Source: Candidatus Staskawiczbacteria bacterium (GTDB taxonomy: Bacteria; Patescibacteriota; Minisyncoccia; Minisyncoccales; Staskawiczbacteraceae). Taken from it: a stretch of DNA of 35,634 nt. Made by a program: the position numbers and the translations under genes. The DNA lies in assembly GCA_903839895.1 (NCBI GenBank), contig CAIMDW010000027.1, forward strand, positions 1 through 35,634. Reading direction: 5' to 3'. The notes under the pieces are model-generated. The model was not told the DNA's origin and did not search any database. It saw only the letters and a list, made by a program, of their open reading frames with translations. Each line of letters opens with the position of its first letter. Positions within the stretch are counted from its first letter, which is position 1. Below, in pieces: positions 4,922 to 35,634 of the stretch.

Positions 4922-5677
4922 TTAGAATCCGAACAGGTGTTTGAAGAAGCTTCCAATACCATGCATCATTCCGCCGAATCCACCTTGCGGCTTTGTTTTG
5001 TTTTCTGCATTATCTCCTGTTCCGGCAGGCTTTGCTTTCTGGTCAATCACCGACGAAGCCGTTACTGCATTTCCATTTATTATTCCTTGCACAACAACGC
5101 TGTCTCCTACTGCCACATTCGAAATTGTGGGATTTACAACGCCGTTTACTGCAAATTTTGCATTTGTGGCGTCAATTGTATAAGTGACATTGCTGGCGTT
5201 GGTAATTGTAATTGAGCTTCCGCTGAGTGCAGTAACCTTTCCTGCCACAATCGGCTGGCCGTTACCCTGTATTTGCGAAAGATCTTGTTTTTCCAAACCT
5301 GGCCTGACCCCGTCCCTAATGGCTGTTGCCACAATATTTGTCCCGGTGATTGTTCCTTGGACCATTATTGTATCCCCAACCGCAATTGCTGAAATTGCTG
5401 ATGTCGCGCCATTTTTTGCCACAGTTGCTTTTGATGCGTCAACCGTATAAATTGTCGTAGTTTGCGTTCCCGCAGAGCCTTCTGACTTCATTTTATTCTT
5501 GCTTGTTACCGTAATTGTCGTTCCGCTTACTGCTGAAACCATTCCCACAATACCCGGTTTGCCCATCATCCCTCTATTAAAGCCAGAATTTCCTTGAGCA
5601 AAAATTGGAGCCGCAAATGCAAACCCTCCTACTATTACTGCCGCCATCATAAACGAAATAATTTTTTTGTTTTGCAT
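4922..5677 (-). CDS. secreted protein with two internal beta-rich repeats of about 75 aa (DUF5666-like) and a Gly/Met-rich tail
   Basis: Start set at the ATG at 5677 (MQNKKIISFMMAAVIVGGFAFAAPIFAQG, a signal peptide). This removes the overlap with the exonuclease gene. Repeats: ...TIYTVDASKATVAKNG...AVGDTIMVQGTITG... and ...VTYTIDATNAKFAVNG...AVGDSVVVQGIING... Confidence 0.7.
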   Translation of the reverse strand: MQNKKIISFMMAAVIVGGFAFAAPIFAQGNSGFNRGMMGKPGIVGMVSAVSGTTITVTSKNKMKSEGSAGTQTTTIYTVDASKATVAKNGATSAISAIAVGDTIMVQGTITGTNIVATAIRDGVRPGLEKQDLSQIQGNGQPIVAGKVTALSGSSITITNASNVTYTIDATNAKFAVNGVVNPTISNVAVGDSVVVQGIINGNAVTASSVIDQKAKPAGTGDNAENKTKPQGGFGGMMHGIGSFFKHLFGF

Positions 5678-5757
5678 GTATTGGTTTTTAATTTTATTTA
5701 CATTAACCAATACGCGGCCATTGGCGCACTCGGTGCATTTTAGGTCCGTTTTCACCC

Positions 5758-6339
5758 TTAAATTCCAAATTTCTTCAATTCCCAAAAACATTTTGCTGTA
5801 GCTTCTGCATCGGCTAATGCGTTGTGAGAGCCCTCGAATCCGCAGCCGAATAATTTCATATGGAGCTCTGAAAGCTTAGGCCACTTATAACCTCCGTAGC
5901 CATTAGTGGCAGGTATTGCGCAAAAATTTGTGGACATGTCTTTCGTACAAATTTTATTTTTTCTGGCTAGGCAGGTTTGGATGCCTTTTCTGATGAATTC
6001 TGCTCCGACTACCATTTCGTCAAAGCTGATATTATGGGCAACAAGAAAATCTGACTCTGCAGCAAAACTTTCAAATTTATCCAATGCTTCCTCCAACGGA
6101 ATCCCCTCTTTTTCAGCTTGCTCGGTTGTAATTCCGTGTATGTTGGAAGCCTCAATGGGTATCTTAAAATTTTCGGGCTTGATTATCATATCTGAACTGC
6201 TGATGCAGGCGCCATTTTTATAAAATACCCAGGCAATCTGGACTAATCTTGGCCAATTTTCCAAATCACTTATCGGGGCGCGCCAGTTGCGTGGCAATCC
6301 GGTGGTTTCCGTATCAAAAAATAAATATGCTTTGTCCAT
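5758..6339 (-). CDS. DnaQ-like 3'-5' exonuclease (DEDDh, DNA polymerase III epsilon family)
   Basis: Exo I FFDTETTG, Exo II LVAHNISFDEMV, Exo III HNALADAEATAKCF. Confidence 0.85.
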   Translation of the reverse strand: MDKAYLFFDTETTGLPRNWRAPISDLENWPRLVQIAWVFYKNGACISSSDMIIKPENFKIPIEASNIHGITTEQAEKEGIPLEEALDKFESFAAESDFLVAHNISFDEMVVGAEFIRKGIQTCLARKNKICTKDMSTNFCAIPATNGYGGYKWPKLSELHMKLFGCGFEGSHNALADAEATAKCFWELKKFGI

Positions 6340-6927: not shown

Positions 6928-6929
6928 TG

Positions 6930-7000
6930 CTGCGGGACTTGGACTCGAACCAAGATACCAGCCTTCAAAGGGCTGTGTCCTACCTTTAGACGATCCCGCA
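6930..7000 (-). tRNA. tRNA-Gln (anticodon UUG)
   Basis: Hand-folded cloverleaf on the minus strand: acceptor UGCGGGA/UCCCGCA, D arm GUCU-AAAGGUA-GGAC, anticodon arm CAGCC-CUUUGAA-GGCUG, variable GUAU, T arm CUUGG-UUCGAGU-CCAAG, discriminator G. 71 nt; CCA is not encoded. U1:A72 is typical of bacterial tRNA-Gln. Confidence 0.9.
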
Positions 7001-9598: not shown

Positions 9599-10705
9599 CT
9601 AAGACGAATGTGTGATATTTATTATTGCTAGCTCCAGAGGAAGCTGCGAGACTGCGGAATATTTTATTTTGTTTTCGGCGTCTATAAAAAATTCAAGCAT
9701 ATCTTGAATGTCTTTTTGGGTTAGGTCTGCGGTTTGATGTTTCATTTTATCTAATTCGGCATCAGACAGGCCGGAATTCTGCAGGTTTAAAAAAGCAGGA
9801 TTTATTTTTAGAAGCAATTGCTGTCGCAGATAAAAAACCAGGGTTTTTGTGAATTCTTGCAAGTCGACTCCGGCTTCCAGTATGGAATTTATGAATACAA
9901 TTGCGTCTTTGGCGTTTTTGGCCACCAGAAAGTCCACGAATTTGGAAATTTCGGCAACTTCCACAATTCCCAGCAATTCCTTTATATTTTCAGTTGTTAT
10001 GGTTGCATTTGGGCCAGAAAAGCTGATGCATTCGTCCAGCAAAGATTCCGCATCGCGGAAACTTCCGCGTGAATTCAAGGCAATCAGAGACAAGGCCGAA
10101 TCATCAAACTTCACGTTTTCTTTTTTAGAAATAAATTCTAGCTTTTTTATGATTTCTGGCACTTGCAATCTTTTAAAATCAAACTTTTGGCATCTGGATA
10201 AGATTGTCGGAATCATTTTGTGCGATTCTGTGGTAGCAAGCAAAAATATTGCGTGAGCCGGCGGTTCTTCCAGAGTTTTTAGCAAAGCGTTTGCCGCCGA
10301 TTTGGAAAGCTGATGGCATTCGTCAATGATGAATATTTTGTATTTTGATTTTACCGGCGAAAATTTCACGCCTTCAATTAATTGTCGTATATCATCAACT
10401 CCGGTATGCGAGGCCGCATCTATTTCAATCAAATCTATTGAATTTCCACCCATAATTTCTAGGCAGGAAGAGCATTTGTTGCAAGGCTCAAACCCTTTTT
10501 CCGGCTTTTCACAATTAATAGCTTTGGCAAAAAGCCTGGCAATTGTGGTTTTCCCGCTTCCGCGGGGCCCTGAAAACAAATAAGCATGGGAAATATTATT
10601 TCCTTTTATAGAATTGGTCAAAGTCTGCACCACATGCTCCTGCCCCACCACTTCCCCAAAGCTCTGCGGACGATATTTCCTGTATAAAACTAAATTATTT
10701 GCCAT
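9599..10705 (-). CDS. dnaX: DNA polymerase III subunit gamma/tau, short form
   Basis: YRPQSFGEVVGQEHV, Walker A GPRGSGKTT, Zn module CEKPEKGFEPCNKCSSC, Walker B IIDECHQLS, SRC motif LSRCQKF. Confidence 0.9.
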   Translation of the reverse strand: MANNLVLYRKYRPQSFGEVVGQEHVVQTLTNSIKGNNISHAYLFSGPRGSGKTTIARLFAKAINCEKPEKGFEPCNKCSSCLEIMGGNSIDLIEIDAASHTGVDDIRQLIEGVKFSPVKSKYKIFIIDECHQLSKSAANALLKTLEEPPAHAIFLLATTESHKMIPTILSRCQKFDFKRLQVPEIIKKLEFISKKENVKFDDSALSLIALNSRGSFRDAESLLDECISFSGPNATITTENIKELLGIVEVAEISKFVDFLVAKNAKDAIVFINSILEAGVDLQEFTKTLVFYLRQQLLLKINPAFLNLQNSGLSDAELDKMKHQTADLTQKDIQDMLEFFIDAENKIKYSAVSQLPLELAIINITHSS

Positions 10706-10971: not shown

Positions 10972-11526
10972 CTATTTTTTGAACACAAAAAACTTGTATC
11001 CAATAAAATTCCACAGGCCGGCCGTTATGGCAGCCAGAATTATGCTGAATTCCTGCCAAAGCTTTGCAGGCAAGATTACGGGATTCAATTTTCCGTAAAA
11101 ATAAAACGAAGCGACATTAATTGCCATGCCGCCAAGGGCAATAATAAAAAACTTTATCATTTCCTTGTGCATGCCTTTTGGCTCTGGTTTTTCAAAGCTC
11201 CAATGCTTATCAGAAAAATATTTCACAAATGTTCCAATTATAAAAGAAATTGCCTTGACCGGCAAAGAAAATGGCAGAAATAAGAAAATTAGCTGAAAAG
11301 CTTTTATATCCACAACGTCGGCAAAAGCTCCTGCCAGCACAAATTTCCCTGCCTGATAGATAAAAAGCGCTTTTTGGCGAAGTAGATACAAAATCCAAAG
11401 GCAAAATATTGATAAAATCGGAAAAATTATGAAAGCAATCCAGGCCTTGGAACCAAAAAAATCTATTGCCAGCCAGGAAACCGCCAGCCCGCAAATTGCA
11501 GAAAGAATTACATCTATTTTTTTCAT
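10972..11526 (-). CDS. GtrA-family membrane protein
   Basis: 184 aa, four or more hydrophobic segments. The KHWSFEKP segment and the C-terminal ...WNFIGYKFFVFKK are typical of GtrA-like proteins. Confidence 0.75.
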   Translation of the reverse strand: MKKIDVILSAICGLAVSWLAIDFFGSKAWIAFIIFPILSIFCLWILYLLRQKALFIYQAGKFVLAGAFADVVDIKAFQLIFLFLPFSLPVKAISFIIGTFVKYFSDKHWSFEKPEPKGMHKEMIKFFIIALGGMAINVASFYFYGKLNPVILPAKLWQEFSIILAAITAGLWNFIGYKFFVFKK

Positions 11527-11571: not shown

Positions 11572-12222
11572 ATGGTTTTTGACTGGCTGAAAAATTTCTT
11601 GGAAAAAATGGACCATTATAGAGATGAGTTCCTATTTTTGTTTATAAAACCTTTTTGGCCGAGAAAAATAACCCCAAACCAAATAACTTATGTGCGGATT
11701 GCGGTGGGACTGGTCTTGTTTGTTTTGCTTTTTTTCTTTAATATAGAAAACAAATCTTTGATAGTTTGGCTGTTTATTTTAGGCGTCATAACAGATTTGT
11801 TTGACGGTTCAGTTGCCAGAGGCCTTGGAAAAGTTACCGAATTTGGCGCGATGCTAGATCCAACTGCTGACAGGATTTTGATTTTGCCGATTGCAATTTA
11901 CAGCCTTTACAAATTCCACAGATGGCTTCTGTTGGCATTATTGATAACGGAAATAATAAATGCCATTTTTTCAATGTTTTACAAATCAAAGGAAATTTAT
12001 ATGGAGTCGAATATTTATGGAAAGACAAAAATGGTGCTGATGTGCATCGTGTTTGGCGCCATTCTTATTGTCTGGCCGAATCGTCCGCCAGAAATCTTCC
12101 TGGAAGCGCTTTGGATTTCGCTGATATTTTCGTATTTGAGCATGCTGGCCCGGATAATGGAGTTAAATGAGAAAGGCCTTGTAAAAAATAGAATAATAAC
12201 TAAAGAAATAATTAAAAAATGA
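11572..12222 (+). CDS. CDP-alcohol phosphatidyltransferase (PgsA-like)
   Basis: Exact family signature DLFDGSVARGLGKVTEFGAMLDPTAD, i.e. D-x2-DG-x2-AR-x8-G-x3-D-x3-D. Polytopic membrane protein. Confidence 0.85.
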   Translation: MVFDWLKNFLEKMDHYRDEFLFLFIKPFWPRKITPNQITYVRIAVGLVLFVLLFFFNIENKSLIVWLFILGVITDLFDGSVARGLGKVTEFGAMLDPTADRILILPIAIYSLYKFHRWLLLALLITEIINAIFSMFYKSKEIYMESNIYGKTKMVLMCIVFGAILIVWPNRPPEIFLEALWISLIFSYLSMLARIMELNEKGLVKNRIITKEIIKK

Positions 12223-13613
12223 AAATTTTCAACACGCTTTCAAGAAAAAAAGACATTTTTAAAGCGCGTAAAGGAAAACAGGTGAATTTATTCGTATGCG
12301 GTCCCACAGTCTATGATTATTCGCATTTGGGCCATGCCAGGAATTATGTTGTTTTTGATTCTTTCGCGAAATATTTGAAGTTTTGCGGCTTTAAAGTTTT
12401 TTATTTGCAGAATATCACCGATTTAGACGACAAAATTATTGCCAGGGCGCGTGAAAAGCAAGTCACTCCAAAAGATTTGGCAATTGCATTTGAAAAGGAA
12501 TATTTAAAAGATATGAAGGCCTTGGGAATTACCAGCGTTTCAAAATATGCCAGGGCAACTGACAATATAAAACCAATCATCAGCCAAGTGGAAAGGCTTA
12601 TGGATAAGAAATTTGCTTATAAGATAGAGAACGACGGAATTTATTTTAATATTGCAAAATTCAAGGATTACGGAAAACTGGCTGGCCGGACAACTTTGGA
12701 TGCCGAAGACGCGGTTTCGAGGATTGATTATTCAAAAGACAAAGTAAATCGCGGAGATTTTTGCGTGTGGAAATTTTCAGATGGCGAAGACCAGCCAAGC
12801 TGGCCTGCTCCTTTCGGGCGCGGAAGACCCGGTTGGCACATTGAAGATACAGCAATTACAGAAAAGTATTTCGGTCCGCAATACGACATGCATGGCGGAG
12901 CGCGCGACTTGATATTTCCCCACCACCAGGCTGAAATTGCGCAGATGGAATCTATTTCTGGAAAAAGCCCTATGGCAAAATACTGGATGCATGTGGGATT
13001 TTTGACTGTAAACGGCCAAAAAATGTCAAAATCTCTGGGAAACTTCATCACTTTGAATGATTTTCTGAAAAGATGCCCAGTAAATTATTTAAGATTTTTC
13101 ATTTCAAAAAATTTATGGTCCTCCCCTATCGATTATTCAGAGTCTGCCATGATTGAAGTAAAGTCGGCAGTGGAAAAAATTGAGGAATTTTTGAGGAAAT
13201 TGAAAGCTGTGAAAAACCCGAAATCCGACAAAAGGCTCGACGGAGAAATTAAAATATTCAAGAAAAAGTTTTATGCGGAACTGGATGAAGATTTTAATAC
13301 GCCGAAAGCTTTTGCGGTTATGTTTGAATTCATAAAAAGGGGAAACGAATTGCTTGAACAAAATTTGATTTCCAAAAAACAGGCTGGCGATATTTACAAA
13401 TTTTTCCAGGAAATGGACAAGATTTTTGGCATTATAAATTTCCAGAAAGTAAACAAGGCAATTCCCGCCGGAATAAAAAAACTTGCCGAAGAACGCGAAC
13501 TTCACCGCAAAAACAAAGAATGGCAGAAAGCCGACGAAGCTCGCCTAGCAATTGAGAAGCAAGGATTTACAGTTGACGATACAAAAGACGGCCCTGTAAT
13601 AAAAAGCCTTTAA
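12219..13613 (+). CDS. cysS: cysteine--tRNA ligase
   Basis: HIGH motif HLGHARNY, KMSKS motif KMSKSLGN, CysRS-like WHIEDTA. The start overlaps the upstream stop (ATGA). Confidence 0.95.
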   Translation: MKIFNTLSRKKDIFKARKGKQVNLFVCGPTVYDYSHLGHARNYVVFDSFAKYLKFCGFKVFYLQNITDLDDKIIARAREKQVTPKDLAIAFEKEYLKDMKALGITSVSKYARATDNIKPIISQVERLMDKKFAYKIENDGIYFNIAKFKDYGKLAGRTTLDAEDAVSRIDYSKDKVNRGDFCVWKFSDGEDQPSWPAPFGRGRPGWHIEDTAITEKYFGPQYDMHGGARDLIFPHHQAEIAQMESISGKSPMAKYWMHVGFLTVNGQKMSKSLGNFITLNDFLKRCPVNYLRFFISKNLWSSPIDYSESAMIEVKSAVEKIEEFLRKLKAVKNPKSDKRLDGEIKIFKKKFYAELDEDFNTPKAFAVMFEFIKRGNELLEQNLISKKQAGDIYKFFQEMDKIFGIINFQKVNKAIPAGIKKLAEERELHRKNKEWQKADEARLAIEKQGFTVDDTKDGPVIKSL

Positions 13614-13620
13614 TTTTTGC

Positions 13621-13661
13621 AAAAAAAAGAGACCTTTGGACAAAACCATTGGTCTTTTGTT
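13621..13661. terminator. bidirectional terminator shared by cysS and the convergent orphan operon
   Basis: A8-G, then AGACCTTTGG...CCATTGGTCT (imperfect stem), then TTTGTT. Confidence 0.5.
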
Positions 13662-13666
13662 ATATT

Positions 13667-13969
13667 TTAACCTTCGACTTCTTGCGGGACAGGAACAGAT
13701 TGTGCCTGGATTTTTTGCCGTTTTGAGGCAAAAAAGTGCTGGGCAATAGTCCTTCTTCCGTTATTGTCGGTTTCAACTCCGATTTTTCTCAATAGCAGCC
13801 AAAATGGAGTCAATGAAATAATCGCATTTTCCGATTGGATCTCGGCCAGCATGCCATGGGCATCCAACCAGGCAAATAGCAAGCCTATTGCGCAGACCGT
13901 TTCCGTATCTGGCGTTTGATCTCTTGAAATTTCATCGACTTTTTGAGCTAAGACGGCAAAGGCATACAT
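13667..13969 (-). CDS. hypothetical protein (100 aa, mostly helical), second gene of an orphan pair
   Basis: The track ORF starts at a TTG (13972). The ATG at 13969 is preceded by AAGGAGGG with a 9-nt spacer. Overlaps the upstream gene by 38 nt in another frame. No family recognised. Confidence 0.55.
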   Translation of the reverse strand: MYAFAVLAQKVDEISRDQTPDTETVCAIGLLFAWLDAHGMLAEIQSENAIISLTPFWLLLRKIGVETDNNGRRTIAQHFFASKRQKIQAQSVPVPQEVEG

Positions 13970-14492
13970 CAATGATTCCCTCCTTTTCCTTTATTAAATC
14001 TACTTCGACGATTGCAACCATTTTTTCGTGGTCGTAATCTCTCAACTTTCCAATTGAACATTCCCAAACAGTGTGCTTGGCGTTTGGCTGATTTGGGCTT
14101 TTTGGAGCAACGACAAATTTAACTCCCAGGTCATCACTCGGAATGATTACAGTTTCATTGAATCCCGGAATGAAAGAAAGCGTGTAAAGGCCATTTTCCG
14201 CCGGTATAGCAAGGTCCCGCATAATAAATACTGATACAATGCGGAAATTCCTTACGGGCGCCGTAAAAAGCTCTTTGCGCGGCTGGAAAAAATAATGCAG
14301 GTTTTCGTTTAGCGGCAGACTTGGCCCAACCACAAAGCGGTAAAGGCAACCATGATAGTATTGTTCGCATTCCCACTGCATGCGGCTTGCCGCGCCGTGT
14401 TTTCTGGCAAGAGTAAACATTCCAATCATTTCCGGCAGATCAGCCGGCGGATGTTCAGTTTTTCTAGACACCACAGTCACCTCCATTTCCAT
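13932..14492 (-). CDS. hypothetical protein (about 180-186 aa), first gene of an orphan pair
   Basis: The track ORF 13932..14672 runs across the dnaB promoter and start, so it is trimmed. The first plausible ATG is 14492 (MEMEVTVV...). GGAGGTG at codons 4-5 also suggests a GTG start at 14474 or 14471. About 53 percent GC in the sampled line. No family recognised. Confidence 0.5.
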   Translation of the reverse strand: MEMEVTVVSRKTEHPPADLPEMIGMFTLARKHGAASRMQWECEQYYHGCLYRFVVGPSLPLNENLHYFFQPRKELFTAPVRNFRIVSVFIMRDLAIPAENGLYTLSFIPGFNETVIIPSDDLGVKFVVAPKSPNQPNAKHTVWECSIGKLRDYDHEKMVAIVEVDLIKEKEGIIDVCLCRLSSKSR

Positions 14493-14529
14493 ATTTAATT
14501 TTAAATTTGCTGTTTCTTTAATTTTTGTA

Positions 14530-14558
14530 AAAATAGCATAAAAATACATTGTCGTCAA
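14530..14558 (-). promoter_or_regulatory. candidate promoter of the orphan pair, TTGACG-17 nt-TATTTT
   Basis: On the minus strand, TTGACG (14558..14553), a 17-nt spacer, then TATTTT (14535..14530). Back-to-back with the dnaB promoter. Confidence 0.4.
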
Positions 14559-14561
14559 GTC

Positions 14562-14590
14562 TTGTTCTGCACTTGCGATTTTGCTAATGT
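14562..14590 (+). promoter_or_regulatory. candidate dnaB promoter, TTGTTC-17 nt-TAATGT, with the ATG 6 nt after the -10
   Basis: TTGTTC at 14562..14567, 17-nt spacer, TAATGT at 14585..14590, then taacacATG. No SD. This geometry predicts a leaderless or near-leaderless mRNA. Confidence 0.4.
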
Positions 14591-14596
14591 TAACAC

Positions 14597-15940
14597 ATGG
14601 ATAAATTGCCTCCGCAAAATAACGAAGCAGAACAGTGCCTTTTGGGATGCTTGATGTTGGACAAAGAAGCAATTGTGAAAGTTGTCGATTTTATTCGGGC
14701 CGAAGATTTTTACAAAGGCGGGCACCAGGATGTTTACCAGTCTATGGCCGAACTTTATGAAAGGGGCGACCCGATTGATATTTTGTCTGTTTCCGCCAGG
14801 CTGAAAGAAAGGAATAAATTGGATGACATTGGAGGCTCGGCATATTTAAGTTCTCTCATAAACACGGTTCCAACCGCAACTCATGTTTACAATTATGCAA
14901 AAATTGTCAGGCAAAAGAAAATTTTGAGGGATTTGATTTCAGCTTCGCAAGAAATAGGCTTGTCTGCATTCAATGAAGCCGAAGAAGTTGATGATTTGCT
15001 GGACAAGGCTGAAAAAGCTGTTTTTGGAATTGGCCAGCGCTCGTTGACGCAGACATTTTTACCCATAAAAGACATTTTAGCCGACACTTTTGAAAGGCTG
15101 GACGAATTGTCAAAAAATGCCGGCCAAATGCGCGGAATTCCGACCAGTTTTACGGATCTGGACAAAATTTTAGGAGGTTTGCAAAAATCTGACTTGGTGG
15201 TTTTGGCTGCCAGGCCCTCGATGGGAAAAACTTCGCTGGCCTTGGATATTGCCAGAAACGTGGCGGTTTTGCAAAACAAGCCGGTGGGTTTATTCTCGCT
15301 TGAAATGTCTAAAGACCAATTAGCTGACAGGCTTTTGGCAAGCTTGGCAAACATAAATTTATGGAACATGAGGAATGGCAGGCTGACGCCGGACGATTAT
15401 TCCAGGCTCCAATACGCCATGGGAAGCTTGTCTGAATCGCCTTTATACATAGATGACGCGGGATCGGTAAATATCCTTCAAATCAGGGCTATGGCTCGCA
15501 GGTTGCAGGCAAACAAGGGCTTGTCGCTGATTGTGATTGATTACTTGCAGCTTATGGAACCTATGAATAAATTTGCTTCTCCGGTACAGCAAGTCACAGA
15601 AAACTCCAGGGCCTTGAAAATGCTGGCAAAAGAATTGAATATTCCGGTGCTGGTTTTGTCACAGCTTTCGCGAGCCGTGGAAGCCCGCACACCTCAAATC
15701 CCTCGTTTGGCTGATTTAAGAGAATCTGGAGCCATTGAACAGGATGCCGATGTTGTCATGATGATTTACCGCGAAGACAAGTACAACGAAAATTCGCTGA
15801 ACAAAAATATTGCCAAAGTTTTGATTGAAAAGCACAGAAATGGCCCGACCGGCGGAATTGATTTATATTTTGATGAAAACCGCGTAAGTTTTCGTAATTT
15901 AGACAAAGGCGAATATACATCTGACGGAGCTATGGGTTAA
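14597..15940 (+). CDS. dnaB: replicative DNA helicase DnaB
   Basis: N-terminal PPQNNEAEQCLLGCLM, Walker A ARPSMGKTS, VIDYLQLM, and RESGAIEQDADVV are classic DnaB motifs. Confidence 0.95.
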   Translation: MDKLPPQNNEAEQCLLGCLMLDKEAIVKVVDFIRAEDFYKGGHQDVYQSMAELYERGDPIDILSVSARLKERNKLDDIGGSAYLSSLINTVPTATHVYNYAKIVRQKKILRDLISASQEIGLSAFNEAEEVDDLLDKAEKAVFGIGQRSLTQTFLPIKDILADTFERLDELSKNAGQMRGIPTSFTDLDKILGGLQKSDLVVLAARPSMGKTSLALDIARNVAVLQNKPVGLFSLEMSKDQLADRLLASLANINLWNMRNGRLTPDDYSRLQYAMGSLSESPLYIDDAGSVNILQIRAMARRLQANKGLSLIVIDYLQLMEPMNKFASPVQQVTENSRALKMLAKELNIPVLVLSQLSRAVEARTPQIPRLADLRESGAIEQDADVVMMIYREDKYNENSLNKNIAKVLIEKHRNGPTGGIDLYFDENRVSFRNLDKGEYTSDGAMG

Positions 15941-16595: not shown

Positions 16596-19500
16596 TTATC
16601 TATTTCCTGTTTTTTGGATTTGGGCAATTCTAGCTGTAAGTTCTTTTTCTGCTTTGTAAGTCCTTTTGATTTTTCTTTTGTTGTCAATGAATTTTTCAAT
16701 CCAGAAAAACATTCCAGACCTCCACATCCAAAGCAATAATAAAGTTATGAGCAATGGCAGGAAGAATGAATCAACCCAGAAGTTATTAGTCAAACCTGTT
16801 GAGATTGAGCTGGCTCCCAAAACTCCGGCCCTTGTGACAATCACCGAGGCGATTGCGGTAGGAGTGTTTGCAACAGAGCTTGTCACATAAGCGCTGTTAT
16901 TTAAAGTTGTAGAACCGTATGAGAAATTCTGTGATGGACCGACTTGTGCCTGATAAGTTATTGTAACTATCTGGCCGGCATAAATTGTGCCTAAGTTTAC
17001 CCCAGAGGTTATATCTCCAGTGTAACCGTAGTTGTTTCCATTGCAATTATTGCTTCCATAGTTTCCCGTGCAGGCTACGACAAGCTGGTTGCTGTAAACA
17101 AGGTTTGCAGGCAGATTATCCCTTACAATCACATTCTGGATATTTTGGTTGCCAGTGGCTTGCAAGGTTATCATGAACATAACCATGTTCGAAGGAGCCG
17201 CATATGTGGCAGTTGACCAGCCCGAACCCGATGTAAGGTTCCTTACTGTTTTGCTTACTGACAATGCTCCATTACTATAGTTGCTGTAAATAGTCATATC
17301 CTGGCCGTAAACTGTGTTGCCAGAGCAATCTTGTCCTGCGGCTCTGAAATGATAAGTATTGCTTGTTGTAACATCGTAAATGTTCGCGCTAAATGAACCG
17401 GAGCTTCCGATGTTCTGCCTTGCAGTCTCGCTTCCGTAATTTGTGCTTGTTCCATATTGGAACCAGGCCGAGGTGTTGCAAGTTGAATTACTGTTAGCAG
17501 TTAAGTATCCATTCAATGTTGCTTGGCTGTTGTAAACGTTAGTTGCAGAATTTGTCTGAACGCTTAAATAGCTGTTATTGTTTTGACAGGCATTATTGGA
17601 ACATCCATTCGGGCAATTTTGTATTAATCCTTCCTGAGCTCCGCATGAATTAAACCAATACAAATCACTTCCAGAGCATCTTTGCTGATAATTTGGAGTG
17701 CAGGTATTAATATTTCCATTGCAGGTTCCATTGCCGCATGTCTGGCTTGTTAGGCAGGTTGTCTGCAATTGGGCTTCTGTAGCGTTTGAGCAGAAGGAAC
17801 TTGCCGTTCCTGGGCTATTGCAGGTATAATTCTTGTAATTTTGGTAAACATTGTTGTTCTGGCAGAATAGAGAACCAATAGAGCCGCTTGCTCCGCAGTC
17901 GCTGTTAGTTGAGCATGCGACACCTTGAACCGAACAGCTTCCATTTGTGCATTGCTGGTTTGGGGAGCATGTTTGTGTAAGTTGAGGCGTTGTGGAATTT
18001 GAGCAGAAGCTTGTTGTTTTTCCAGGATTATTGCAAGAATAGGTTATAAAATTCTTGTAAGCATTGCCGGCCTGGCAGAAGGCATTGCCCGTAAGGCTAT
18101 TTGATCCGCAGTCGGAATTGGATCCACATGCGATGTCAGGAGTCGAGCAGCTTCCGTTATCACAGGTTTTATTTGTTCCGCAAGACGAAGTCAGTTGCGG
18201 TACAAGTGTGTTTGAGCAGAAACTTGTGGTTTTTCCAGGTTCATTGCAAAAATATGTGATCTGATTCCTATAAACATTGTTGTTCTGGCAGAATGGATTT
18301 CCTGTTAAGGCGTTGGTTCCGCAATCTGCACTTGCTGAGCAGGCAATATTTTTGTTTACGCAACTTCCGTTGCCGCATGTCTGGCTTGCTGTGCAAGTTG
18401 TTTTCAATTTGGCAACAGTGGAATTTGAACAAGATGAATTGACTGTGCCTGCGTTATTGCAGACATAAGTAATGTAATTTTGATATGCATTTCCGCTTTG
18501 GCAGAATAAACTTCCAGTATAAGCGTCGGTTCCGCATTGTGAATTCGTTGAGCATTTTACTGTGCCGGTTGTGCAAACGCTAGTTGATGTGACGTTTGAG
18601 TCCAAATTCCATGGCAATGAATTCGGATTACCATATGATTGCGTGTCCGACAGAGTATGAGGAGCTGTCTGATACCACAAGTCAGCCTGAGTTTTGCAGG
18701 ATGCATTTGATACAGAAATGTCAGTTGTGCCGGTCTTGTTTATATTTACAAGCGCAGATGATGCATAATATTGCTGAGTTGACATCCAGTTGGCCTCTCC
18801 TCTATTCCTGAACATTTTGTATGTGGCTGCGATCAGCGGAGCTGAACATTTTGTTGTGTTTGTTATATGATAAGTAACTTGGCTCCCGCTGTCAGTGTGA
18901 GTTATTGAAACTTTTCCATTAGCTAATGCCGCGCTCAATTCTGGGGCAGTCATTGTGCTTCCGTTCGCACAGCTGGCGGCAGCGGTTGCCGTTACGCTGA
19001 AATTATTGTTTGAATCGTCATGTGGATTTCCTAAAGCGGCACTGCTTTGATAAACTCCCATCCAAACATGGTAGGCATTGTCGGCTGGCCATGAATTTGG
19101 AACAGTCAAAGTATATGATCCTGTATTCGGCACATTTATAAGGCTATAACCTGCTACTGCAACTCCCCAATTTGAAATAGTCAACTGGGCGTGGGCGGCT
19201 GAATGCGCGCCGGCGGTTGTTGTCCATCGGATAGTTTGGGAAGATCCTTGAGCCCATTGCTCTCCTCCATTTGGATAATTTAATGTAAATGTTCCATAAT
19301 CAACTGCATTATTAACGCATGCGGCATTACTGCAAGTTTGGCTTGTTGTGCAGGCTTGATATAATGTTCCTTGCTTATCGCATGTGTCAAAGTTGTAAAT
19401 GGAATTGCCTACGCACTTTTTGTAATCATTTGCTGTGCATTTTGGCGAAAAAGATACGTTATATGTCACATAAGATCCATTATCTTCATGAGAATGGTCT

Positions 19501-19844
19501 CCTGTGCCGGCAAGACATCCAACTGGCTTTTGAGCTACCTGTACGTAGGATGTATTAAGTCCTGAAATATCAGATAATCCGCTAGCATATTTTACAGCAG
19601 AACGCACACAATAATTTAGCTGACCTGAATCAGGAACGCCAGGAGCACCTTCTCCATCTCCAATAGGGATGCAACTGCCGTTAGTCGGCAAAAGCGCGCA
19701 GTCTGGATCGGCTCCGCCATTATTATCGTAGTTCATTAATATCGACCCGGTTGTGGTGGATGCATTTATGTTACCCACGCACGGCAAAACCAACATCACT
19801 GATAAAATAATGCAGGCAAAAATTATTTTGTTTGCTGTCTTCAT
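16596..19844 (-). CDS. giant secreted Cys-rich repeat surface protein with a C-terminal membrane anchor (1082 aa)
   Basis: Signal peptide MKTANKIIFACIILSVMLVLPCVGNINA. Four tandem 71-aa Cys repeats flanked by related Cys modules. An Fn3/beta-sandwich-like segment (ATLNGYL...WFQYGTSTNYG). A DUF11-like segment (SVSKTVRNLTSG...VRDNLPANLVY). C-terminal TM FFLPLLITLLLLWMW followed by a charged tail of about 40 aa. Confidence 0.8.
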   Translation of the reverse strand: MKTANKIIFACIILSVMLVLPCVGNINASTTTGSILMNYDNNGGADPDCALLPTNGSCIPIGDGEGAPGVPDSGQLNYCVRSAVKYASGLSDISGLNTSYVQVAQKPVGCLAGTGDHSHEDNGSYVTYNVSFSPKCTANDYKKCVGNSIYNFDTCDKQGTLYQACTTSQTCSNAACVNNAVDYGTFTLNYPNGGEQWAQGSSQTIRWTTTAGAHSAAHAQLTISNWGVAVAGYSLINVPNTGSYTLTVPNSWPADNAYHVWMGVYQSSAALGNPHDDSNNNFSVTATAAASCANGSTMTAPELSAALANGKVSITHTDSGSQVTYHITNTTKCSAPLIAATYKMFRNRGEANWMSTQQYYASSALVNINKTGTTDISVSNASCKTQADLWYQTAPHTLSDTQSYGNPNSLPWNLDSNVTSTSVCTTGTVKCSTNSQCGTDAYTGSLFCQSGNAYQNYITYVCNNAGTVNSSCSNSTVAKLKTTCTASQTCGNGSCVNKNIACSASADCGTNALTGNPFCQNNNVYRNQITYFCNEPGKTTSFCSNTLVPQLTSSCGTNKTCDNGSCSTPDIACGSNSDCGSNSLTGNAFCQAGNAYKNFITYSCNNPGKTTSFCSNSTTPQLTQTCSPNQQCTNGSCSVQGVACSTNSDCGASGSIGSLFCQNNNVYQNYKNYTCNSPGTASSFCSNATEAQLQTTCLTSQTCGNGTCNGNINTCTPNYQQRCSGSDLYWFNSCGAQEGLIQNCPNGCSNNACQNNNSYLSVQTNSATNVYNSQATLNGYLTANSNSTCNTSAWFQYGTSTNYGSETARQNIGSSGSFSANIYDVTTSNTYHFRAAGQDCSGNTVYGQDMTIYSNYSNGALSVSKTVRNLTSGSGWSTATYAAPSNMVMFMITLQATGNQNIQNVIVRDNLPANLVYSNQLVVACTGNYGSNNCNGNNYGYTGDITSGVNLGTIYAGQIVTITYQAQVGPSQNFSYGSTTLNNSAYVTSSVANTPTAIASVIVTRAGVLGASSISTGLTNNFWVDSFFLPLLITLLLLWMWRSGMFFWIEKFIDNKRKIKRTYKAEKELTARIAQIQKTGNR
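17703..18554 (-). repeat. four tandem in-frame repeats of 213 nt (71 aa) inside the giant protein gene
   Basis: Residues 431-501, 502-572, 573-643 and 644-714 share the pattern C-x5-CG-x8-FCQ-x8/9-Y-CN-x8-FCSN-x10-C-x5-C-x3-C. Nucleotide strings such as cattgttgttctggcagaa recur near 17855 and 18270. Confidence 0.85.
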
Positions 19845-19946: not shown

Positions 19947-20633
19947 CTAACTTGTTTGCAATTCTGCTTGCACGGTTATTCTCTGATAATCCTTTCCCGG
20001 CGGCCAGCAACTTATCAAGGTTAGGACATTTTTACTTGCGTCTAATCCGTCCTGCGGAATGTCCGACCCTCTATTAATTATAGTCTTTTTAATAACTACA
20101 TATGTATATTGGACATTATTCATGTCAATTGAGATTTTATCACCTTCAGACAATTTGTCCAGCTGAGAGAAAATCCAGTCATGCTTGATTGTTGGCCATC
20201 CTGGAGGAGCCGAGTGTCCTAAAATAATTATCTGCCCTGTCTGACCTGGATAAACGGATCCCGGGTAATAAACTGCACCTTGGTCCAAATTTTTCATCAA
20301 ATCAGCTTTCACAGTGCTTGTTGCGAAAACAATCGGCACTGAAATGGAAATTTTTGGAATTTCCAAAGTATTTTGTTTTTCTGTATAAACCGTCTGCGCA
20401 GTTATTTTGGCCGGCGCGGCGGTTGTGGAATTTTGACTATGATTTGGATAAAAATACGCATCAATGGAAGTTGCATCAATAGACGGATAAGGATTAAAAA
20501 AATCACTGACCAGCCCATAAACTTCCTTGTAATTGAAAACCCATGAAACATCGTTCCAGTTTATTATTAGAAAGCTGGCAACGTACAATACCAGCGCAAG
20601 TTTCAATACTTTTTTTGCTTGGTCTTTACTCAT
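19947..20633 (-). CDS. sortase family transpeptidase
   Basis: N-terminal TM. Catalytic His in IIILGHSAPPG, Cys in LTLISCWPPG (TLxTC motif), Arg in YQRITVQAE. The start overlaps the stop of the upstream CAP gene by 1 nt (TAATG). Confidence 0.85.
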   Translation of the reverse strand: MSKDQAKKVLKLALVLYVASFLIINWNDVSWVFNYKEVYGLVSDFFNPYPSIDATSIDAYFYPNHSQNSTTAAPAKITAQTVYTEKQNTLEIPKISISVPIVFATSTVKADLMKNLDQGAVYYPGSVYPGQTGQIIILGHSAPPGWPTIKHDWIFSQLDKLSEGDKISIDMNNVQYTYVVIKKTIINRGSDIPQDGLDASKNVLTLISCWPPGKDYQRITVQAELQTS

Positions 20634-35180: not shown

Positions 35181-35293
35181 CTGTAGGAGAACTACCTACT
35201 CTCGCGCAAAGCACTACCATCGGCCTTGGAAGATTTCACTTCTGAGTTCGAAATGGGATCAGGTGGAGCACTTCCAGTATAGTTCTCTTACAC
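35181..35293 (-). rRNA. rrf: 5S ribosomal RNA
   Basis: The reverse complement contains CCACCTGATCCCATTTCGAACTCAGAAGTGAAA and GCGAGAGTAGGTAGTTCTCCTACAG. These align with E. coli 5S (CCCACCUGACCCCAUGCCGAACUCAGAAGUGAAA...GCGAGAGUAGGGAACUGCCAGGCAU). Helix I closes between about 35292 and 35182; ends are good to a few nt. Confidence 0.85.
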
Positions 35294-35399
35294 TATTCAC
35301 GATTTTTTTCAAAGCTTGCTTCTAAAATACCTAAAATCTATATCTATTAGTTAACTTACGAATGATGATGAATCCGATACGCTCAAATTCTGAGTATAT

Positions 35400-35634
35400 C
35401 GAAGGATAAACGATTTATTAGTACTCCCGGGCTGAACACATTACTGTGCTTACACCTAGAGCCTATCAACCCCGTGATCTGCGGGGAATCTATGAGTTCT
35501 CATCTTGGAGTTAGTTTCGCGCTTATATGCTTTCAGCGCTTATCTATTCCCGACTTAGCTACCCAACGATGCTCCTGGCGGAACAATTGGTACACCAGAG
35601 GTCAGTTCATTCCGGTCCTCTCGTACTAGGAACA
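35400..35634 (-). rRNA. rrl: 23S ribosomal RNA, 3'-terminal part, truncated by the window edge
   Basis: The reverse complement begins TGTTCCTAGTACGAGAGGACCGGAATGAAC (sarcin-ricin loop) and continues ...GATAAGCGCTGAAAGCATATAAGCGCGAAAC...GGTTGATAGGCTCTAGGTGTAAGCACAG...AGTACTAATAAATCG, colinear with the E. coli 23S 3' end. The 3' boundary is approximate, within about 10 nt. Confidence 0.9.

Follow-up and report, generated by a model that had tools for sequence, protein, structure and literature searches.

What are the two overlapping open reading frames (ORFs) that lie antisense between the housekeeping genes cysS and dnaB of a Candidatus Staskawiczbacteria genome? The contig concerned, CAIMDW010000027.1, was analysed over its 35,634 nucleotides (this whole stretch is called the window), and an original prediction, made from the letters alone, had compared the pair, here ORF1 and ORF2, to toxin-antitoxin (TA), effector-immunity and small defence modules. 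We favour another reading, with a probability of roughly 0.45: the two ORFs would form a lineage-specific accessory operon, in which ORF1 encodes an oligonucleotide/oligosaccharide-binding (OB)-like protein and ORF2 is translationally coupled to it, gained at a variable slot, dispensable, and concerned neither with addiction nor with defence. The ORF1-ORF2 unit is an ordinary orphan cassette of the Candidate Phyla Radiation (CPR), consisting of a new uncharacterised family and an ORFan, a kind common in CPR genomes. The elements of the locus are the following.

12219-13613, plus strand: cysS.
13608..13625, plus strand: left copy, CTTTAATTTTTGCAAAAA, of an 18-nt direct repeat, spanning the cysS stop codon.
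13627..13658, no strand assigned: terminator hairpin with A8 and a T-rich run as its flanks, located between the stop codons at which cysS and ORF2 converge.
13667..13969, minus strand: ORF2, 100 aa from ATG 13969, with TTG 13972 as alternative start.
13932..14474, minus strand: ORF1, 180 aa from GTG 14474, or 179 aa from GTG 14471.
13978..13985, minus strand: Shine-Dalgarno (SD) sequence AAGGAGGG of ORF2, read from the sequence and encoded within the ORF1 codons KEKEG.
14478..14484, minus strand: SD sequence GGAGGTG of ORF1, read from the sequence, with two GTG codons 5-8 nt downstream.
14516..14533, plus strand: right copy of the direct repeat, 17/18 identical, within the ORF1 promoter.
14530..14558, minus strand: sigma70-like promoter TTGACG-17-(TG)TATTTT, ahead of ORF1-ORF2 and back-to-back with the dnaB upstream block.
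14560..14596, plus strand: conserved dnaB upstream block TCTTGT...TTTTGCTAATGT, the presumed dnaB promoter, its exact hexamers being uncertain.
14597-15940, plus strand: dnaB.

An exhaustive phmmer search of 1.84 billion representative proteins returned two true relatives of ORF1, P0003 (176 aa, 52% identity, E 1e-45) and P0004 (178 aa, 36% identity, E 3e-15). The three proteins align from end to end with 41 invariant columns. A 946-aa repetitive protein among the matches (P0005) was spurious. No further members were recovered by a profile search with the family, and a scan of metagenome DNA added one extra copy of the P0003 locus and no more; when 5.8 billion proteins were searched with a word-indexed method, each ORF matched nothing but itself. 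Shuffling of the cysS-dnaB spacer gave a frame open over 179 codons or more in 0.06% of cases (p=0.0006), and a codon model trained on the window scored ORF1 at 0.127, best in its own frame and within the range of the real genes (0.06-0.34). On this sequence evidence ORF1 is certainly a real gene. The family to which it belongs is patescibacterial, undescribed and tiny, with three clusters, and is composed of soluble all-beta proteins of about 178 aa; neither a signal peptide nor a membrane segment was detected in it.

The ORF1 frame is open over 13932-14672, and a GGAGG core precedes the gene at 14484-14480. We place the start at GTG 14474/14471 because the homologues begin with MSRK/MSE at the matching position of the alignment, because the NCBI protein call on the same contig (P0007) has 180 aa, and because the longer form scores poorly. 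That form, a JGI call of 205 aa from ATG 14551, is unlikely: the extension has a codon score of -0.68, is AT-rich and overlaps the promoter.

Conservation of the pair across genomes was a check proposed with the original prediction, and its outcome went against that prediction. Three near-identical assemblies, all of one species, are the only ones in which the pair was found: the NCBI/ENA window, the JGI contig L001 and the ENA contig L002. The gene of P0003 (L015/L019) has, on its contig of about 50% GC, the 3′ end of a UvrD/PcrA-like helicase gene on one side and rsmA/ksgA on the other, and that of P0004 (L016-L018 and L020, from another Patescibacteria metagenome-assembled genome, MAG) lies between rplA and a dCMP deaminase-kinase-tmk-thyX cluster. 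Both genes are solitary: an ORF2-like partner would have neither space nor an open frame beside them, and tblastn with ORF2 at these loci gave no match in any frame, even at E=1. Since both other ORF1 lineages carry the gene alone, ORF1 and ORF2 do not co-occur beyond one species.

The host belongs to Candidatus Staskawiczbacteria (CPR/Patescibacteria), its DnaB being 78-91% identical to that of eight Staskawiczbacteria-type MAG contigs, which share with the window the gene order pgsA-cysS-dnaB-recR followed by a large Cys-rich surface protein. Relatives whose DnaB is 87-91% identical lack the pair. The claim of a discrete cassette was borne out, and the unit is lineage-specific: close relatives do without it, and the cysS-dnaB junction is nearly empty in some of them (43-81 nt). 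The coordinates of the spacer in each contig, its length and its content are given below.

13614-14596 in the window, 983 nt: the two minus-strand frames ORF1 and ORF2.
5614-5997 in L003, 384 nt: promoter present, no ORF above 48 aa.
5408-6000 in L006, 593 nt: a 120-aa membrane-anchored ORF.
4971-5997 in L007, 1027 nt: a 132-aa ORF abutting a 116-aa ORF.
5508-5997 in L008, 490 nt: a 97-aa membrane-anchored ORF.
4500-4550 in L010, 51 nt: short, no minus-strand promoter.
5955-5997 in L011, 43 nt: short, no minus-strand promoter.
5920-6000 in L012, 81 nt: short, no minus-strand promoter.

All five long spacers (384-1027 nt) have a near-consensus minus-strand promoter that abuts the dnaB upstream block; the three short spacers lack it. 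The window promoter, predicted back-to-back with that of dnaB, was indeed found at 14558-14530; taken alone it is not above chance (4 promoter-like sites against 2.6 expected), and equivalents occupy the same place in four relatives (L003, L006, L007 and L008) with 9-12 of 12 matches, the one in L007 being a perfect TTGACA-17-TATAAT. Four of the five long spacers contain minus-strand ORFs, which are unrelated between lineages: no phmmer pair among the spacer ORFs had an E value below 0.09, and blastn among the spacers revealed shared DNA only over the dnaB-proximal 40-60 nt or so, corresponding to the conserved block and its immediate flanks. These protein and DNA comparisons rule out that the ORFs of the relatives are diverged copies of ORF1 or ORF2. 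As far as these alignments tell, the stretch between cysS and dnaB is, across Staskawiczbacteria, a variable slot, which seems to have gained and lost small genes repeatedly.

The slot resembles integration hotspots and genomic islets in its conserved flanks (cysS, dnaB), its variable lineage-specific content of raised GC, the empty sites of close relatives and the 18-nt direct repeat that brackets the cassette. It differs from them in that the inserts measure only 0.4-1 kb, genes for an integrase, a transposase, a tRNA or any other mobility function are absent, and flanking repeats were seen in this lineage only. With the ORFans of CPR/Patescibacteria the pair shares small size, the lack of Pfam domains, occurrence in few MAGs and core information-processing neighbours; unlike for such ORFans, the site behaves here as a recurrent slot, in which the divergent promoter is conserved and the minus-strand ORFs of several sister lineages are unrelated, a more ordered situation than that of a random orphan gene.

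The direct repeat (also written CTTTAATTTTTGYAAAAA) has 2 matches in the 35.6-kb window against 0.05 expected. Its copies bracket a 908-nt unit comprising the terminator, ORF2 and ORF1, and excision leaving one copy would yield a spacer of 75 nt, like the empty sites; an insertion scar is possible. Composition had also been put forward, both genes being called GC-rich relative to their flanks. Each ORF has a GC content of 0.45 against 0.405 for the window, which exceeds 26 of the 28 window genes (gene median about 0.39), and this part of the claim stood; the contrast with the immediate neighbour is small, dnaB at 0.438 being only slightly lower. The GC enrichment is real but modest. Inserts were GC-richer than their own genome in three of the four relatives.

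The hairpin at 13627-13658 had been described as a bidirectional terminator shared with cysS. It folds on both strands, with -14.4 kcal/mol (z -3.55) on the plus strand and -9.8 kcal/mol (z -1.63) on the minus strand. It is probably a bidirectional intrinsic terminator: the hairpin itself was confirmed, and its use in both directions is plausible.

Further observations were made at the same junction in other contigs. The two ORFs of L007 form a two-gene cassette (5023-5771, minus strand) with an overlap of 1 nt, and the 116-aa product carries a C-terminal CxxC...CxxC zinc ribbon, weakly matching Zn_ribbon_IS1595 (E 4e-4, below the Pfam cut-off). In L003, positions 5791-5874 downstream of the minus-strand promoter contain the 8-nt unit CGGAGCAT in a short tandem array, together with a palindrome of about 70 nt, and could represent a small RNA or decayed cargo. 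Two contigs, L004 (1-3230) and L005 (1-2061), encode a DnaB 88-89% identical to that of the window without cysS upstream of dnaB, so that the junction is also a synteny breakpoint. Divergent from dnaB there is instead a gene whose product (more than 1000 aa in L004, more than 630 aa in L005) carries a membrane anchor at its N-terminus. The label 'Saccharibacteria' on these two MAGs looks wrong. In the window, the TTTTGCTAATGT block (14582-14599 region) ends 6 nt before the dnaB ATG (14597), compared with 20-40 nt in relatives; because the block stops so close to the ATG, the dnaB mRNA may be leaderless or near-leaderless in this species.

The reading closest to the original prediction, a novel toxin-antitoxin, effector-immunity or small anti-phage module in which one product is harmful and its overlapping partner neutralises it, was weighed against these data, and we consider it unlikely. 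Its arguments are those of architecture: small overlapping genes, a strong internal SD sequence and a discrete cassette with its own promoter at a variable site, together with the two abutting small ORFs that L007 also carries there. Type II systems (RelBE, MazEF, HigBA) are alike in that their two small genes point the same way, overlap or are coupled in translation, and have a promoter of their own, and also in their patchy distribution and their insertion between housekeeping genes. As in such systems, the two genes are adjacent and apparently co-transcribed, with an overlap of 38 nt, the internal SD sequence and a single predicted promoter and terminator. However, the resemblance failed on conserved pairing, family homology and genomic neighbourhood. 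In two lineages the ORF1 homologue stands by itself, and none of the frames there resembles ORF2. Neither protein had a match below E=0.01 in Pfam (where the ORF1 family members were also searched), NCBIfam, PADLOC or PHROG, and none was obtained in PDB sequence searches; the absence of a recognisable family, which had been noted from the letters, was thus upheld, and no known toxin or antitoxin family is represented. A match to PrsW (E 0.2) and matches to PHROG families (E 0.016-0.17) were discarded as noise. No DNA-binding antitoxin domain and no fold match were detected in ORF2, and ORF1, as a 179-aa all-beta protein, is larger than the typical components and shows no sequence or fold similarity to them. 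The window neighbours (pgsA, cysS, dnaB, recR, dnaX, sortase, FemAB and similar) are purely housekeeping and cell-envelope genes, and the window flanks contain no defence-island or mobile-element genes (integrase, transposase, phage). Searches by tblastn of phage GenBank entries, scans of IMG/VR and a viral-fold search revealed no phage, plasmid-like or viral relatives. TIGR-Tas systems have been reported in Staskawiczbacteria (bioRxiv 10.64898/2026.09.09.750476), and the TasR protein described in that work, PateTasR, has 329 aa with RuvC, coiled-coil and C-terminal domains; a link to these systems was rejected, as neither ORF resembles PateTasR and no array occurs at the locus. A broader version, in which the slot would be a dedicated expression site with a conserved strong promoter divergent from dnaB and exchangeable lineage-specific cargo, and ORF1-ORF2 a conflict module made of an OB-like sensor of single-stranded nucleic acid and a helical partner, appears quite improbable; if the cargo did consist of conflict systems, the locus would join a very small number of its kind known from CPR bacteria.

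The remaining alternatives concern the coding status of the region, and above all that of ORF2. If only ORF1 were a gene, the ORF2 frame would be open by mere chance, within a long 3′ untranslated region or a decaying insert. This view, which we hold to be rather unlikely, is consistent with the lack of a homologue outside the species, with relatives of ORF1 that function without ORF2, and with the appearance of a 100-codon open frame anywhere in the 983-nt spacer in 17.5% of shuffles. The comparison with L001, a second strain 98.8% identical over 13 kb, is of little help in either direction: ORF2 differs by one synonymous and no non-synonymous change and ORF1 by three synonymous and two non-synonymous changes, too few to prove selection, ORF2 thus offering a single nucleotide difference for judging it. 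Set against chance is the SD sequence AAGGAGGG at correct spacing, its GGAGG core lying 9 nt ahead of ATG 13969 and 6 nt ahead of TTG 13972. The ORF2 frame is the best of six in the codon model (0.151 versus 0 or less for the others; window genes 0.06-0.34), and shuffling of the ORF2 region itself left a frame of at least 100 codons open in 1.6% of cases (p=0.016). The AlphaFold 2 (AF2) single-sequence model of ORF2 contains five helices with a mean confidence (pLDDT) of 74. Moreover, the terminator follows directly after the ORF2 stop and not after that of ORF1, and an untranslated tail of 270 nt would be unusual for a compact CPR genome. The case for ORF2 being coding is indirect, because no relative was found outside the species; we nevertheless regard it as probably a real coding gene. 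Its product would be a young, species-specific helical ORFan.

The overlap of two frames could also suggest one gene split by a sequencing frameshift at 13932-13969, and nothing else speaks for it. This alternative is next to impossible, and we exclude it because ORF1 is full-length against its homologues, aligning end to end with the 176- and 178-aa proteins and stopping where they stop. The overlap region is free of indels, the identical two-frame arrangement is kept in three independent assemblies, and no ORF2 counterpart follows the homologues downstream. A non-coding region, for instance a structured RNA transcribed from the divergent promoter with both ORFs as artefacts, would agree with the spacers of several relatives being GC-richer than their genomes (0.50 versus 0.37 in L006) and with the spacer of L003, which has the promoter and no ORF above 48 aa. 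It is made very improbable by the ORF1 homologues, conserved as proteins at 36-52% identity in different genomic contexts. An Rfam scan of the spacer, the whole window and the relatives gave no RNA family in any spacer up to E 1, and DNA similarity between spacers does not extend beyond the dnaB-proximal promoter region.

We return to the accessory operon and to the nature of its products. The prediction that the first protein is beta-rich and the second helical agrees with the AlphaFold models. The AF2 model of ORF1 is all-beta with 11 strands (pLDDT 71, predicted TM-score 0.62), and its strands can be read as two consecutive five-stranded units. Foldseek on these models, also proposed at the outset, gave for ORF1 weak matches that were mostly OB-folds, and none for ORF2 (best E 2.8). 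The leading matches in the PDB included CST/POT1, HIN-200 domains, RNase II/Dis3L2, RPA DBD-A, uS12 and the Thermus single-stranded DNA-binding protein (SSB), and those in BFVD included LEF-3, S1, the DnaE OB domain and phage SSBs. The two halves of ORF1 also share a weak repeat, in which their invariant W-E/x-C (WEC) motifs, with cysteines C35 and C138, fall opposite each other (hhalign E 0.011, probability 4%); an internal duplication of ORF1 is weakly supported by this alignment. From the model, ORF1 is most likely a non-enzymatic binding protein with two OB-like barrels, and its ligand is most likely a single-stranded nucleic acid or another oligomeric ligand. The genes around the family members include those for DNA or nucleotide metabolism, namely dnaB/recR, the UvrD-like helicase, and dCMP deaminase/tmk/thyX. 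A nucleic-acid ligand fits, because all three members lie near such genes, a pattern that chance is also expected to give in small genomes.

Tandem OB-fold binders (RPA70 DBD-A/B, CST, HIN-200, the two-OB SSB of Thermus/Deinococcus, LEF-3) are similar to ORF1 in size (about 180-200 aa) and in the predicted topology of two successive five-stranded beta units. They differ in several respects, and ORF1 is at most a candidate member: its structural matches are weak (E 6e-3 to 0.5, TM-scores 0.2-0.3), and it has neither a Pfam SSB/OB signal, nor a helix between strands 3 and 4, nor the acidic C-terminal tail of SSB type, its isoelectric point being neutral to acidic.

Several of our own results weigh against the accessory operon as we describe it. 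The ORF1 model was built from an alignment of three sequences. The Foldseek search with it gave nothing significant, the best E being 6e-3 and the TM-scores 0.2-0.3 with a maximum of 0.32; because the scores are so low, the term OB-like is a lead, not an assignment. The SSB, S1, CSD and tRNA-anticodon OB families of Pfam matched none of the three ORF1 members at E up to 10, and the isoelectric points of the family (5.6-7.7) are atypical for nucleic-acid binders. For ORF2, no relative was found outside its own species, in a protein search that was word-indexed only and may miss distant ones. The direct repeat is AT-rich and could be a coincidence, with no comparable repeats in the relatives.

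With these reservations, the accessory operon can be described as follows. The cassette would have been gained by insertion into a short ancestral cysS-dnaB spacer. We infer such a gain because the 18-nt direct repeat brackets the cassette, its GC content is above that of the host, and the closest homologue resides on a contig of about 50% GC. ORF1 and ORF2 would be transcribed from the sigma70-type promoter divergent from dnaB, and transcription would end at the hairpin shared with cysS. The two genes are arranged as had been described, antisense to both neighbours, with the ATG of ORF2 38 nt inside the 3′ end of ORF1, in a different frame and behind the strong SD sequence. Residues 166-179 of ORF1, encoded in the overlap region, form a non-conserved tail with pLDDT below 50. 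The SD sequence and start of ORF2 fall within the low-confidence C-terminal tail of ORF1, an arrangement that appears suited to translational coupling. ORF2 would then be a putative helical partner, produced in a fixed ratio with ORF1 and binding or modulating it. The unit would be dispensable, and would be neither an addiction nor a defence module.

In practical terms, the uncharacterised genes of CPR bacteria, already very numerous, gain one more pair encoding hypothetical proteins, and the toxin-antitoxin call made from architecture alone does not survive the test of co-occurrence. The ORF1 family is tiny, structurally tractable, all-beta and restricted to Patescibacteria, and it is described in no database. 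The slot beside the replicative helicase gene offers a small natural system for gene gain, expression and loss in minimal host-dependent bacteria.

Other features of the window were noted in passing. Compared with L001, dnaX (9599-10705) shows 71 differences, or 6.4 per 100 nt (57 synonymous, 14 non-synonymous), and the genes around it 0-1.8 per 100 nt; the gene looks as if it had been acquired by recombination from a strain less closely related. Just to its right, at 11526/11572, the genes switch from the minus strand on the left to the plus strand on the right, and the cumulative GC skew, profiled over 10-19 kb, reaches its minimum near 11.3-11.5 kb. This switch could be replication-origin-like. 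Downstream of dnaB, positions 16596-19844 (minus strand) encode a 1082-aa protein with an N-terminal signal or anchor, a C-terminal membrane anchor and many repeated Cys-rich modules (CS.N..CG.....G..FCQ..N.Y), whose sole Pfam match is a weak one to the Kre9/KNH Ig-like family. Because a sortase gene (19947-20633) and a CAP-domain gene adjoin it, the product is probably a sortase-anchored surface protein. A tRNA-Gln(TTG) gene is located at 6929-7000, and the right edge of the contig carries, on the minus strand, a 5S rRNA gene (35183-35290) and the 3′ end of a 23S rRNA gene (35397-35634).

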